Source: Alphaproteobacteria bacterium
GTDB lineage: Bacteria > Pseudomonadota > Alphaproteobacteria > GCA-2731375
Direction: 5' to 3'
DNA length: 64,000 nucleotides
NCBI GenBank assembly: GCA_965225945.1
Contig: CBDDBZ010000037.1
Span: 288,001 to 352,000 of the forward strand
Position 1 is the first letter of the stretch, and the number at the start of each line of letters is the position of its first letter. Under the pieces are notes generated by a model that saw only the letters and a list, made by a program, of their open reading frames with translations, was not told where the DNA came from and did no database searches. The position numbers and the translations under genes were made by a program. This document shows positions 19,584 to 45,130 of the stretch, piece after piece.

Positions 19584-19681
19584 GGTTCAAGTCTACCGGA
19601 ACTCGCGAGCAGTAGGAACAGCAATCTCAGTTCTTCGAGACGCGTGAATGCATTAGGGACAGCTAAACGGCAACTCTTGGC

Positions 19682-20898
19682 TCTTATGTCCTCTCCCCTG
19701 TCAAGCACGAACGCGGCCTTTCACCCGGCTCGTCACCGGGTGCTGGGTATCTGACGCCCGCTTTGGAAGGCAGCGGCGGGACGGCTTTGATCGACGGTCC
19801 ATCAAGCTCTTATCCGCGGATCGACTACCGCATGTCCCTATGTCCGATGGGGCTGTCCTGACTCTACAGACGGGCATCGGATGCAATCCTGCCCATAGCC
19901 AAGGAACGGGAGTTCCCCAAGTGGCCGCCACCGCCGCTGCCCACGCAAGCGGGCGTGTTGGTATTCGCCGCTCGGCGCGCGGCGATTTATGCCATCGGCG
20001 GGGGCACCATGCGGGCGATGGCCCAGACGTGCCCCGCCAGCTCCCGGGCCACCGCGGTCAGCACGGTGTTCTGGTGTTTGCCGCGCCCGCGCAGATCGCG
20101 CATGCGACGACACAATCGTATCTGCGCCTGCCAGGCCTTGTCGCGGATCGGCTCCGGCAGATGGGCTGAACGGGCGCGGATCGGGCTCGACTGGCGCGCC
20201 GGGTGACGATAGGTCCAGGCTGCCTCCACCAGGACACGGCGAACCATGGCGTTGCCCGACTTGGTGATCTTGCCCCGCTTGCGTCGATCACCGCTGGAAT
20301 ATTCCGACGGCACCAAGCCGACGTAGGCCATCAGATGGCCCGCCGTGGGGAAGCGCTGGAAGTCGCCGATCTCCGCCGCGACCATGGCGGCATTCTCCCA
20401 ATCGAAGCCGCGTAACGCCTGAAGGGCGTCCATGACCGGATACAAGGCCCAGCCGCCAAGGTGTTCCCGCAACTCCAGGCGCGCTCGCGCCAGCATCTCT
20501 TCCGCCCGTTCGAGACGGCCAAGCAATTCCGAATAGGTCAGCGCCAGAGCGCCGTGCTCGAACTTCTGATCCACCAGCCAGTTCCGGTGGGTCTTCGTCC
20601 AATGCGTCGTACCCGCCCGATACACCCGATCATGCATCAGGCAGAAGCCCAGGATCTGCTGCTTGGCCCGGCGCACGTCGCCCGCCGCCAGGTGGCGCAG
20701 GCGCACCAGCGCGCGAACCGCCTCGTGGCTCGCGTCGGGCACCCAGACCGCGGTCAACTGTCCGGCACGCAACAACGAAGCCAGGCTCAGCGCGTCCCGC
20801 CGGTCCGTCTTGACCCGGTCACCGGGCCGCTTGGGGATCAGCGAGGGCGCCACCACATCGCAGGTGTGGCCCCAGTCCAAAAGCCGGCGATGCAGGGA
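19682..20898 (-). mobile_element. IS110/IS1111-type element A, 5'-truncated copy
   Basis: Matches 43773-44989; fused to IS21 at a GGA microhomology. Confidence 0.92.
19754..19956 (-). ncRNA. Predicted bridge RNA of IS110 element A (second copy)
   Basis: Matches 44715-44917. Confidence 0.7.
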
Positions 20899-22696
20899 GC
20901 GCGCGTTCAACCGGCGCTTCGTGCAGATGTGTGGCCACTACCTGGTCGAACCGACAGCATGCACGCCGGGAGCGGGATGGGAGAAGGGGCAGGTCGAGAA
21001 CCAGGTCGGGATCATCCGCGGTCGGTTCTTCACCCCGCGGCTGCGCTTCAAGACCTACGACGAGCTCAACGCCTGGCTCTTGGACCAGTGCGTCGCCTAC
21101 GCCCGGCGTCATCCCCACCCGGTGTTCAAGGACAGGACTGTCTGGCAGGTGTTCGAGGACGAGCGTCCGTCCCTGGTCGGCTATCGCGGGCCGTTCGACG
21201 GCTTCCACGCGGTCCCGGCGTCGGTGTCGAAGACCTGCCTGGTGCGCTTCGACAGCAACAAGTACAGCGTGGCGGCGCGCGCCGTCGGCCGTCCGGTCGA
21301 GGTCCATGCCTACGCCGATCGCATCGTCATCCGCCAGGACGGCGAGATCGTCGCCGAGCATGCCCGGCGCTTCGGCCGCGACCAGACCGTCTATGACCCG
21401 TGGCACTACGTGCCCGTGCTGGCGAGGAAGCCCGGTGCGCTTCGTAACGGCGCGCCGTTCAAGGACTGGGCGCTGCCCGGCGCCCTGGGTCGCGTGCGCG
21501 TCCGGCTCGCCGGCCACGACGACGGCGACAGGCAGATGGTCGAGATCCTCACCGCCGTGCTGGCGGATGGGCTGGCGGCGGTGGAGGCCGCCTGTGCCGA
21601 GGCGCTCGCTGGCGGCGTGTGCAGCGCCGACGTCGTGCTCAACATCCTCAATCGTCGGCGCCAGCCGTCCGAGACGGCGCCGATCCCGACGCCCGCGAAC
21701 CTGCGTCTTCGCTTTGAGCCGGTGGCCGATTGCACCCGCTACGACCGCTTGAGGGGGGTCGGCCATGGAGCGCCATGAGGTCCTGGAGATGATGGCCGCA
21801 CTCAAGCTCGCCGGCATGCGCGACGCGTTCGACGAGGTGCTCGCCGACGGCCTCAAGCGCCAGCATCCGATGCAGCGAATCATCGGCGAGCTGTTGAAGG
21901 CCGAGATCGCCGACAAGCAGGCGCGATCCATCAAGTACCAGATGAGTGGCGCCAAGCTGCCGCTGGCCAAGGAGCTGGCCGACTTCGACTTCACCGACAC
22001 CCCGGTCAACGAGCCGCTGGTCCGCGAGTTGGCGGTCGGCGGCTTCCTGGCCAACCAGCGCAACGCCGTGCTGATCGGCGGCACCGGCACCGGCAAGAGC
22101 CATCTCGCCGTCGCCATCGCGCGGGCCTGCATCCGCGATGGCGCCCGGGGCCGCTTCTTCAACGTCGTCGACCTGGTCAACCGGCTCGAGGCCGAAGCCC
22201 GCGCCGGCCGCCAGGGCCGGCTCGCCGATCAGCTGGCCCGGCGCGACCTCGTCATCCTCGACGAGCTCGGCTACCTGCCCTTCGCCCAAACCGGAGGCCA
22301 GCTGCTGTTCCACCTCGTCAGCCGGCTCTACGAGCGCACCTCGATCATCGTCACCACCAACCTGACCTTCGGCGAATGGCCGTCCGTCTTCGGCGACGCC
22401 AAGATGACCACCGCGCTCCTCGATCGTCTGACGCACCACTGCGAGATCATCGAGACCGGAAACGACTCCTGGCGCTTCAAGAATCGGTCCTAAAGGCAAC
22501 CGATCCACCTGCCGCCCGGTCGCCCAGGTGGGCCCACAGGAACCTCCCACGCGCGGTCCGCCGCCAGCCGCGTGGTGGGCGCGTCGGCCCGCGCGCGGGC
22601 CCCTCCTATGGACTACCTGTACGACCTCCGCCGTGCATCCCCAAAGGGGTCAACATTGCACGCCGATAGGGGGTCAATGTTCAACGCCGATTGACA
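20896..22696 (+). mobile_element. IS21 copy 2 (5' part of istA deleted)
   Basis: Matches copy 3 from ERAFNRRF onward; right IR ends GATTGACA at 22696. Confidence 0.93.
21765..22493 (+). CDS. istB: IS21 helper ATPase IstB
   Basis: Same protein as the other copies. Confidence 0.95.
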
Positions 22697-43371: not shown

Positions 43372-43568
43372 ACGGGCGAAATCCTCGGCTAGACCGTCGC
43401 CGTCTATTGTCGGGGGTAGACTCTCCATTGGGTTGGGGTGGCAGATGCGGTGAGTCGTAGACCCTATGTCCGTTGAGGTTTCGACGCCGGGACCAGGTGT
43501 CCGCCTCAGCATGTAGTTTCGAGGGTTGCACGCGTTTGCGTGCCTATCCTCATACATGGGAGACGGAC

Positions 43569-44684
43569 ATGACGGACGATATCACCTTTGTTGGCTTGGA
43601 TGTTTCGAAGGAGACGATTTCGGTCGGGATCGCGCCGGGTGATCCGCGAGAGGCGGTTCATTATTTCGGCACCATCGTGTACCGACCGACGGCGCTCTAT
43701 TCGCTCTGCAAGAAGCTGTCGCGGGACGGCGCGCGTCTTCACTTCTGCTATGAGGCTGGCCCGTTCGGCTATTCCCTGCATCGCCGGCTTTTGGACTGGG
43801 GCCACACCTGCGATGTGGTGGCGCCCTCGCTGATCCCCAAGCGGCCCGGTGACCGGGTCAAGACGGACCGGCGGGACGCGCTGAGCCTGGCTTCGTTGTT
43901 GCGTGCCGGACAGTTGACCGCGGTCTGGGTGCCCGACGCGAGCCACGAGGCGGTTCGCGCGCTGGTGCGCCTGCGCCACCTGGCGGCGGGCGACGTGCGC
44001 CGGGCCAAGCAGCAGATCCTGGGCTTCTGCCTGATGCATGATCGGGTGTATCGGGCGGGTACGACGCATTGGACGAAGACCCACCGGAACTGGCTGGTGG
44101 ATCAGAAGTTCGAGCACGGCGCTCTGGCGCTGACCTATTCGGAATTGCTTGGCCGTCTCGAACGGGCGGAAGAGATGCTGGCGCGAGCGCGCCTGGAGTT
44201 GCGGGAACACCTTGGCGGCTGGGCCTTGTATCCGGTCATGGACGCCCTTCAGGCGTTACGCGGCTTCGATTGGGAGAATGCCGCCATGGTCGCGGCGGAG
44301 ATCGGCGACTTCCAGCGCTTCCCCACGGCGGGCCATCTGATGGCCTACGTCGGCTTGGTGCCGTCGGAATATTCCAGCGGTGATCGACGCAAGCGGGGCA
44401 AGATCACCAAGTCGGGCAACGCCATGGTTCGCCGTGTCCTGGTGGAGGCAGCCTGGACCTATCGTCACCCGGCGCGCCAGTCGAGCCCGATCCGCGCCCG
44501 TTCAGCCCATCTGCCGGAGCCGATCCGCGACAAGGCCTGGCAGGCGCAGATACGATTGTGTCGTCGCATGCGCGATCTGCGCGGGCGCGGCAAACACCAG
44601 AACACCGTGCTGACCGCGGTGGCCCGGGAGCTGGCGGGGCACGTCTGGGCCATCGCCCGCATGGTGCCCCCGCCGATGGCATAA
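43569..44684 (+). CDS. IS110 DEDD recombinase
   Basis: FVGLDVSK, CYEAG, KTDRRDA, GLVPSEYSSG. Confidence 0.95.
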   Translation: MTDDITFVGLDVSKETISVGIAPGDPREAVHYFGTIVYRPTALYSLCKKLSRDGARLHFCYEAGPFGYSLHRRLLDWGHTCDVVAPSLIPKRPGDRVKTDRRDALSLASLLRAGQLTAVWVPDASHEAVRALVRLRHLAAGDVRRAKQQILGFCLMHDRVYRAGTTHWTKTHRNWLVDQKFEHGALALTYSELLGRLERAEEMLARARLELREHLGGWALYPVMDALQALRGFDWENAAMVAAEIGDFQRFPTAGHLMAYVGLVPSEYSSGDRRKRGKITKSGNAMVRRVLVEAAWTYRHPARQSSPIRARSAHLPEPIRDKAWQAQIRLCRRMRDLRGRGKHQNTVLTAVARELAGHVWAIARMVPPPMA

Positions 44685-44714
44685 ATCGCCGCGCGCCGAG
44701 CGGCGAATACCAAC

Positions 44715-44917
44715 ACGCCCGCTTGCGTGGGCAGCGGCGGTGGCGGCCACTTGGGGAACTCCCGTTCCTTGGCTATGGGCAGGATTGCATCCGATGCCCG
44801 TCTGTAGAGTCAGGACAGCCCCATCGGACATAGGGACATGCGGTAGTCGATCCGCGGATAAGAGCTTGATGGACCGTCGATCAAAGCCGTCCCGCCGCTG
44901 CCTTCCAAAGCGGGCGT
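44715..44917 (+). ncRNA. Predicted bridge/seek RNA of IS110 element A
   Basis: Long closing stem enclosing two internal loops that match the target and donor junctions. Confidence 0.75.
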
Positions 44918-45019
44918 CAGATACCCAGCACCCGGTGACGAGCCGGGTGAAAGGCCGCGTTCGTGCTTGACAGGGGAGAGGACATAAGAGCCAGAAACGG
45001 TCCCTTAGACATCTCTAAT

Positions 45020-45130
45020 GCACTTGTCCGTCAGAGCATGCAGGAACAGGGCAGGGCCGGGATCTTCAAGGCGTTTCGAATCTCGGTCAGGGAAGTCCTA
45101 CGCGACGACACCCTGGCCGAGCGCGTCGAA
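45020..45130 (+). pseudogene. Possible C-terminal fragment of an antibiotic-biosynthesis-monooxygenase-like gene
   Basis: QEQGRAGIFKAFRISVREVLRD resembles the ABM C-terminus; weak. Confidence 0.3.

Follow-up and report, generated by a model that had tools for sequence, protein, structure and literature searches.

The locus studied here raises the question of how a mobile element can specify both the site that it enters and the ends that it carries. It lies in a stretch of 64,000 nucleotides (hereafter the window; NCBI GenBank assembly GCA_965225945.1, contig CBDDBZ010000037.1, positions 288,001 to 352,000 of the forward strand) from an alphaproteobacterial genome of the GTDB lineage GCA-2731375. 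Positions 43459-44990 of the window comprise one intact insertion sequence (IS) of the IS110 family, 1,530 bp in length. A preliminary description, made from the letters alone, had proposed that an RNA from the 3′ part of this element guides it to its target and to its own ends; the family model matched by the transposase (NCBIfam NF033542), covariation within the RNA, and co-variation of the guides with their partners all support that proposal. On this sequence evidence we consider it highly probable that a DEDD/Ser transposase is guided by the element's own 3′ RNA, the guide segments of which read both the target and the element ends.

Transposase, limits and core of the element

The gene at 43569-44684 (+ strand) encodes a transposase of 371 residues, consisting of an N-terminal DEDD (RuvC-like) domain (Pfam PF01548, DEDD_Tnp_IS110; residues 8-151, E 3.6e-12) and a C-terminal Tnp domain with a Ser-Gly motif (PF02371, Transposase_20; E 1.2e-21). 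The protein matches NF033542, "IS110 family RNA-guided transposase", at 235.7 bits (cut-off 140) and aligns to the solved structures of IS621 (8wt6) and ISCro4 (9t56). D11, the glutamate of HFCYEAG (residue 62) and both aspartates of KTDRRD (D100, D103) align to acidic residues of IS621 and ISCro4, the roles of which are as given in PMC11208158 (statements on published work refer, here and below, to excerpts of the cited papers). Similarly, GLVPSEYSSG is aligned with GLTPRRYESG of IS621, corresponding to the G-L-x-P-x4-S-G motif that carries the catalytic serine as given in PMC11187229. Proteins of the relatives align to the transposase from residue 1 onward. Judged by its protein, the element belongs to the IS110 family of DEDD RNA-guided transposases.

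The limits of the element were read by comparing occupied and unoccupied units of a dispersed repeat, one unit of which it interrupts, and by reference to the junctions of relatives. Ten junctions are readable in the element's own genome (six left and four right), with every left junction beginning ACCCTATGTCCG; occupied sites take the form ...T-AG-ACCCTATG...GGACATAAG-AG-CCA... (also read as T-AG-ACCC...ATAAG-AG-CCA). Eighteen of 21 unoccupied units carry a single AG and read ...TAGCC, the remaining three being TAGAG, TCGCC and TAACC. Because unoccupied paralogous units read ...T-AG-CCAAG, with one AG only, the core is the dinucleotide AG, found at 43459-43460 on the left and at 44989-44990 on the right. 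The same AG flanks the elements of relatives and is constant across the clade, whose junctions follow a common rule: left flank-AG-(5-6 nt)-ATG...(inverted repeat) at one end and (inverted repeat)...CAT-(3 nt)-AG-right flank at the other. It is on the paralogous unoccupied units and on this clade rule that the placement of the core rests, and since the empty site has a single AG and each junction has its own, insertion is, as read from these alignments, without target duplication.

The preliminary description had instead taken the trinucleotide AGA as the core and CGT-AGA-GCCAR as the target, having seen AGA-GCCA after both copies of the element in the window. Part of this holds, in that GCCAG follows the copy studied here and GCCAAG follows the second copy, at 19.7 kb; AGA, however, is the 2-nt core together with the first base (A) of the element. 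We rejected AGA as core, and with it the proposed target, given the TAGCC of the unoccupied units and because the 9-nt guide match described below is contiguous only with a 2-nt core. The target that replaces it is about (A/G)T-AG-CCAAG.

Inside the left core lies a non-coding end of 108 nt (43461-43568, delimited by the six left junctions), with the string CCCTATGTCCG at 43462-72, while the non-coding end on the right is far longer (304 nt, 44685-44988); here the string ...GGACATAAGA stops at 44989 and GCCAG follows. Subterminal inverted repeats of 7 bp, TATGTCC at 43465-43471 and GGACATA at 44980-86, mark the two ends (8-13 bp in relatives), the latter belonging to a right-end tip that spans 44918-44988. 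The tip also holds a perfect TTGACA (44965-70), 18 nt ahead of the right core's end, with TTGA(C/A)A at the corresponding position of the aligned, diverged relatives. Its position would fit the −35 box of a junction promoter, a candidate that we set aside as no convincing −10 was seen by eye across the predicted junction; a consensus promoter scan called 0.

A conserved predicted RNA in the right end and its probable guide segments

The right non-coding end contains a predicted bridge/seek-type RNA (44715-44917, + strand) in which a long closing stem surrounds hairpins and four guide segments. The outer part of the stem pairs ACGCCCGCTT (44715-24) with AAGCGGGCGT (44908-17), and the inner part pairs GGCAGCGGCGG (44730-40) with CCGCCGCTGCC (44892-902); these strands, and the guide strings CTTGGCT (44768-74), GTAGAG (44804-09), CGGACATAGGG (44825-35) and ATAAGA (44858-63), all lie where the preliminary description had placed them. 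Relatives were gathered from genomes (80 loci, 43-56% protein identity) and from metagenomes (80 loci, up to 92%), and nine well-aligned non-coding regions (NCRs) yielded an RNAalifold consensus of 41 pairs, 18 of them compensatory, from which the covariance model R1 was built.

R1 matches the NCR of the element itself at 44718-44917 (121.3 bits) and gave a plus-strand match 3′ of the transposase gene in 93 of the 100 sources searched. Across 74 such matches, 94.0% of cells were paired, compared with 72.6% on shuffling and at most 47.9% with slid partners, and two-sided (compensatory) changes occurred in 34 of the 41 pairs, an observed value that 0 of 500 shuffles reached; the 74-row alignment was fitted to R1, which favours both the paired and the compensatory counts. 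Rfam gave 0 matches at gathering score in the window and 0 at E≤1 in 44650-45000. Contigs covering 44717-44901 and 44742-44924, plus others over parts of the gene, are present in two metatranscriptome runs from the same study, a hint that the RNA is expressed.

Within this structure, the target would be read by a first pair of guides, for which (as for the donor pair) significance was taken from 2,000 dinucleotide shuffles of the NCR. The right target guide, CUUGGCUAU (CUUGG + CU + AU; 44768-44776), is the complement of the top-strand AT-AG-CCAAG present in unoccupied sites such as those on contigs C32 and C26, and a complement of at least 9 nt to an unoccupied, core-spanning target was found in 2 of the 2,000 shuffles. 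Across the clade it takes the form N5-CU-A-(U/G), just 5′ of a central hairpin, complementing T-AG and the first five bases of the right flank. The complementarity of CTTGGCT to the right flank, which the preliminary description had pointed out, is thus borne out and extends over 9 nt to span the core; the right flanks of the insertions in the same genome begin CCAAG (2), CCAAT (1) and CCAGA (1, the window copy). On the other side of the central hairpin, the left target guide (44804-44808; GU + AG, followed by an A with which the left end also begins) would pair with the bottom strand, being identical to GT-AG-A at the left junctions of the window copy and of the copies C29 and C37a. Its clade form, N2-4-AG-A, equals left flank, core and first base of the left end. 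The earlier equation of GTAGAG with left flank plus core stands as to position, which co-varies with the left flank, although the guide proper is only GUAG followed by A.

The second pair would read the element ends. The right donor guide, CGGACAUAGGG(A)C (44825-44837), pairs through CGGACAUAGGG with left-end positions 2-12 and places C44837 opposite the core G; it sits directly 5′ of an invariant AUGCGGU, in a register complementary to the core G and to the opening bases of the left end (an alternative register, GGGACAUGCGGU against the left end with 9 of 12 matching, was dropped because the clade-wide register sits just 5′ of the conserved AUGCGGU). A complement of at least 11 nt (44825-35) to the first 32 nt of core plus left end occurred in 3 of 2,000 shuffles. 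The loop-2 complement to the left end noted previously is therefore present at its full 11 nt, but only its 3′ part (4-8 nt) recurs in close relatives with the same left end, and the working right donor guide of the clade is, from these alignments, probably shorter than 11 nt. The left donor guide, AUAAG + AG (44858-44864), lies after CCGCG and is identical to the terminal 5 nt of the right end followed by the core (at least 7 nt of identity to right end plus core in 13 of 2,000 shuffles), in agreement with the earlier reading of ATAAGA. In relatives it changes together with the right end, as CAUCAGAG, CAUAUCAG and AUAUGAG, tracking the right ends AAG-AG, CAG-AG, ATC-AG and ATG-AG.

Co-variation between guides and their partners was scored across lineages, using one row per distinct guide and leaving out rows without a readable junction (35 of 93 for the right flank, 53 of 93 for the left). 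In 58 lineages, the contiguous match between the right guide and the right flank of the same lineage averaged 3.14 nt past the core, compared with 0.60 nt for mismatched pairs; matches of at least 4 nt were found in 30 of the 58 lineages but in only 2.1% of mismatched pairs, and none of 10,000 permutations reached the observed value. The left guide behaved likewise against the left flank in 40 lineages (2.38 vs 0.99 nt; 0/10,000 permutations), and the 18 lineages scored for the right donor guide and the left end gave a similar picture (3.83 vs 2.80 of 7; 0/10,000). Folding and covariation across homologues, to which the preliminary description had looked for confirmation, thus speak for the RNA in the stem and in the guides alike. 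The bases adjoining the guides also follow the junctions to some extent: the relatives L089 and L091, the two lineages with a left end that starts TCA instead of ACA/ACC, likewise have TC(A) after the AG of the left target guide, so that the base(s) after this guide track the left end in the manner of a bottom-strand-side handshake guide, a pattern that L088 does not fit. In 12 of 27 lineages, the right flank begins with the same base that comes after the left donor guide.

The element limits, the single AG in unoccupied units, the protein family, the conserved RNA structure, and the guide/flank and guide/end co-variation were all computed directly. Against guidance by this RNA weigh a number of points, which concern the guides, the statistics and the intermediates. 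The right guide scores 0 in 17 of the 58 lineages, 14 of which form one group with the guide GGGUU that would need a G-U pair with the core, and the lineages are kin, such that the permutation counts overstate their independence. In the element itself, the left target guide GTAG is only 4 nt long and is matched in 1,017 of 2,000 shuffles (not significant alone), the donor guide sets a C against the core G but faces the core A, and likewise the initial A of the left end, with an A, and the site occupied by the window copy matches the right target guide over T-AG-CCA only. No empty allele of the same locus was found, there being no orthologous intergenic match in two same-genus genomes (G002 matched only at a neighbouring gene and G001 not at all); likewise, no circle junction was seen in four sequencing runs, although these were searched as contigs, which drop rare forms, and no empty site was found in the same four runs of contigs. 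Finally, the RNA-library evidence consists of contigs from a single study, for which DNA carry-over is possible.

We take the element to move like the IS1111 and IS621 systems because its layout fits the logic set out by Siddiquee et al and Durrant et al. A ~200-nt RNA transcribed from the right end would guide the DEDD/Ser transposase through its two guide pairs, one for target and one for donor. By analogy with IS621 and ISEc11, the element would leave as a circle with the junction ...GGACATAAG-AG-ACCCTATG...; the RNA, bound to the transposase, would use its donor pair to hold this junction and its target pair to hold a matching site, at whose AG exchange would take place without duplication of bases. 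In the preliminary description the circle junction lacked the central AG, and the form now predicted, ...GGACATAAG-AG-ACCCTATGTCC..., is 2 nt longer. For the RNA–protein complex, the circle and the order of strand exchange, we rely on the cited papers.

The target repeat and alternative explanations

The site itself belongs to a dispersed intergenic repeat with a unit of ~67 nt. Its left part occupies 43402-43458 (+ strand; nhmmer profile match at C37:331402-331463, equivalent to 43402-43463 of the window), and the right part of the target (CCAG... to CTAATG, 44991-45020, + strand) is a right arm that flank comparison finds common to occupied sites. Using an nhmmer profile built from the junction flanks, we located 43 units in the genome (e.g., C26:94880-94946 and C29:162735-162801), with sharp limits at about −62 to +5 nt around the core. 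Every insertion in the genome (6-7 junction sets) is inside the repeat, near its 3′ edge, with left flanks ending CGT (2), TGT (1) or GAT (3). The units amount to ~3.2 kb of 6.27 Mb, and hold only 7 of the 69 TAGCCAAG sites and 24 of the 792 TAGCCA sites of the genome.

The right arm, which ends CTAATG or CTAATA, is common to all four right flanks in the genome, to a same-genus relative and to the metagenome relatives L101, L110 and L128; by eye, the same arm is present in about 5 of 21 unoccupied units. The same-genus relative, 77% identical and 5′-truncated, also sits before CCAAG...CTAATGCA, and the three metagenome relatives are inserted in similar sequence. No guide was found for the arm (CTAATG/CTAATA). 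The unit contains a conserved GGGG...CCCC hairpin, and an alignment fold of the unit supported no structure beyond one hairpin.

It is possible, although we hold it to be doubtful, that the guides provide a core-proximal match only and that the repeat itself, through its hairpins or right arm, is recognized by the transposase or a host factor, comparable to the "dual-match" reported as an extra recognition layer for ISPpu10 (bioRxiv 10.64898/2026.03.19.712850). The confinement of all 6-7 junction sets to the repeat when few matching genomic sites lie there, the guide-less arm that the right flanks of the genome share with those of the same-genus and three metagenome relatives, the conserved hairpin and the ISPpu10 precedent are all in keeping with such a layer. 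Survivor bias would give the same picture, however, since most other matching sites are probably in genes, from which insertions are lost; the counts are small, the alignment fold supports but one hairpin in the unit, and the co-variation of right guide and flank in 58 lineages shows that pairing matters. The restriction of insertions to the repeat could thus reflect either survivor bias or an additional layer of recognition.

Matches to the repeat came from close kin only: a BLAST search with one unit gave 18 matches in the element's own genome, 7 in one same-genus genome and 1 weak match in another, and it was not found by the same search in 18 further relatives' genomes, nor was there a match in the plasmid collection. 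We considered and rejected several identities for it. As a known RNA, 10 loci searched against Rfam returned one sub-threshold riboswitch match only (E 0.86); as a repetitive extragenic palindrome (REP) of a REP-associated tyrosine transposase (RAYT), no unit has any of the genome's 8 Y1_Tnp matches within 3 kb; as coding sequence, unit lengths differ (by eye) by non-multiples of three; and as the end of a single transposon family, its neighbours are diverse. The Y1_Tnp matches include three near-identical genes of IS200/IS605 or RAYT-like type (C22:27961-28308, C35:366216-366563 and C37:31773-32120). By eye, the repeat often adjoins transposase or recombinase genes (IS3, IS4-like, IS256-like, tyrosine recombinase), and four units (C38:115391.., C37:246055.., C36:361120.. 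and C38:200288..) share a common sequence that starts 7-8 nt after the core and runs into a tyrosine-recombinase-like gene; another mobile element may use nearly the same site as the IS.

A further question is whether the copy studied here can still move. The genome (6.27 Mb, 39 contigs) holds two full copies, the second being on contig C29, and 5-6 partial copies, at 97-100% identity. One of the partial copies is that at 19.7 kb in the window, which the preliminary description had rightly located but which is not whole: it is 5′-truncated and retains element positions 312-1528 only (19682-20898; feature 19681-20898, − strand) at 100% identity, with the same RNA (R1 match 19754-19953, minus strand), the right-end tip at 19682-98 and CCAAG following. 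It abuts, at 20898/20899, a 5′-truncated element of the IS21 family (20899-22493, + strand) that comprises a C-terminal part of IstA (profile positions 200-289 of 294) together with the helper ATPase IstB, which is whole (271 bits). Elsewhere, two different elements of ~1.4 kb with inverted-repeat ends interrupt copies of the IS, one at element positions ~449-464 (C37:259062-260470) and the other at ~107-122 (C34:7178-8623).

We regard it as improbable that the window copy is a dead relic, in which RNA and gene are intact by chance and movement has ceased. Truncation or interruption of 5-6 of the 7-8 copies would suit a relic, as would the lack of a circle junction in the four runs of contigs; but the two full copies are identical save that the C29 copy has lost 3 nt and has 14 nt duplicated at its tip, the partial copies are near identical to them, the reading frame is open with its catalytic residues kept, and the unitig depth of the element in two DNA runs is 5-6 times that of its flanks, a value also consistent with copy number. 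Taken jointly with guidance by the 3′ RNA, an active or recently active insertion sequence is what we hold very likely. At the tip of the C29 copy (C29:111295-111330, locus L002), 14 nt of the right-end tip are tandemly duplicated (...GAGGACATAAGAG twice) and 3 nt (GGA) are missing just before; this duplication may be the trace of aberrant recombination at the right end.

Least credible, and in our view very nearly negligible, is the explanation that the right-end complementarities act at the level of DNA, as transposase-binding internal copies of the terminal repeats, rather than as RNA guides: the left-end complement does resemble the right end by way of the subterminal repeats (GGACATA recurs at 44827-33 and 44980-86), and close relatives that share this left end differ in the 5′ part of the 11-nt match, but the target-side segments match flanks rather than ends and change with those flanks in relatives, all segments occupy fixed places in a structure kept by compensatory changes, and the family is known to use such RNAs (PMC11208160, PMC11187229).

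Relation to known RNA-guided elements

The element, read as guided by its 3′ RNA, can be set against the systems described to date. Bridge and seek RNAs were described in 2024 and are predicted in 93% of IS1111 entries (PMC11208160). IS621 (Durrant et al, 2024, PMC11208160; Hiraizumi et al, 2024, PMC11208158) shares with the present element a DEDD plus Ser recombinase (phmmer to 8wt6, E 1.5e-12, with alignment over two stretches only, 3-144 and 227-296) and a single RNA carrying target and donor guide pairs, one guide per strand, both overlapping a 2-nt core (PMC11208160). It differs in that its RNA lies 5′ of the gene rather than 3′, and its core is CT rather than AG; in the present element, moreover, the top-strand guide comes first in each pair, and the right guide is long (5+2+1-2 nt) and the left short (2-4+2 nt). 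The extra matched base likewise falls elsewhere, after the left guides here (A, the first base of the left end) but after the top-strand-pairing guides for the "handshake" bases of IS621 (PMC11208158).

The layout fits that of the IS1111-type seekRNA elements ISEc11, ISKpn4, ISPst6 and ISPa11 (Siddiquee et al, 2024, PMC11187229), with a long NCR downstream of tnp and a top-strand match that lies 5′ of the bottom-strand match and overlaps it in the target (PMC11187229); the guides studied here follow this order in both pairs (44768-76 before 44804-08, and 44825-37 before 44858-64). Subterminal inverted repeats are also shared, the 7 bp found here being the lower limit of a 7-17 bp range (PMC11208160). 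A repeated sequence is the preferred target in this group too, REP in the case of ISPa11. The repeat described here is a different sequence, and transposases of the tight IS1111 cluster have 330-350 aa compared with the present 371 (PMC11187229). The ISKpn4 transposase is 27% identical over 199 of the 371 residues, and R1 did not find the ISKpn4 NCR, its best match scoring 6.9 bits and lying inside the gene. The element is, from its sequence organization, best called an IS110-family element with IS1111-like organization: a short left end, a long right end and subterminal inverted repeats.

Among annotated plasmids, the nearest named relative is an "ISSfr2 family" transposase (52% identity), followed by those of the "ISSso6 family" (46%) and "ISEc45 family" (45%); all are below 60%, with alignment over 96-99% of the protein, placing them in the same broad clade. 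A literature search for ISSfr2 found no paper. To call the element uncharacterised, as the preliminary description had done with a "probably", is fair as far as we searched, although the supplementary tables of PMC11208160 and PMC11187229 (ISfinder RNAs and targets) may already cover relatives.

ISPpu10 of Pseudomonas putida provides a parallel for the repeat: all of its insertions are in copies of one conserved intergenic repeat, which carries a stem-loop 5′ of the paired bases (bioRxiv 10.64898/2026.03.19.712850), a likeness drawn from that description. In the present genome, a dispersed repeat restricted to the same genus is the landing site of the element, and it is conceivable, though in our view less likely than not, that site choice in this clade needs more than ~8-10 paired bases, with a host repeat of ~100 nt as landing pad; on the 5′ side of the core such a pad would have its hairpins, and on the 3′ side the shared arm that ends in CTAATG. 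As part of the same tentative proposal, the base that follows the bottom-strand guides may mark a strand-exchange order that mirrors that of IS621.

Among the known bridge/seek-RNA-guided IS110/IS1111 systems, the element is a further, uncharacterised member; it is of an ordinary kind, though unusually legible, and leaves the known mechanism of such systems unchanged. In annotation, it accounts for a multi-copy repeat at which assemblies break, and Rfam has no entry for its RNA family; for tool builders, it is another orthologue with a guide code readable from genomes alone. For the family as a whole, it adds one more readable natural example of RNA-guided IS110/IS1111 recombinases, from a clade that is spread over many Proteobacteria and other phyla and in which a 5+2+1-nt right guide has been naturally re-programmed in dozens of lineages.

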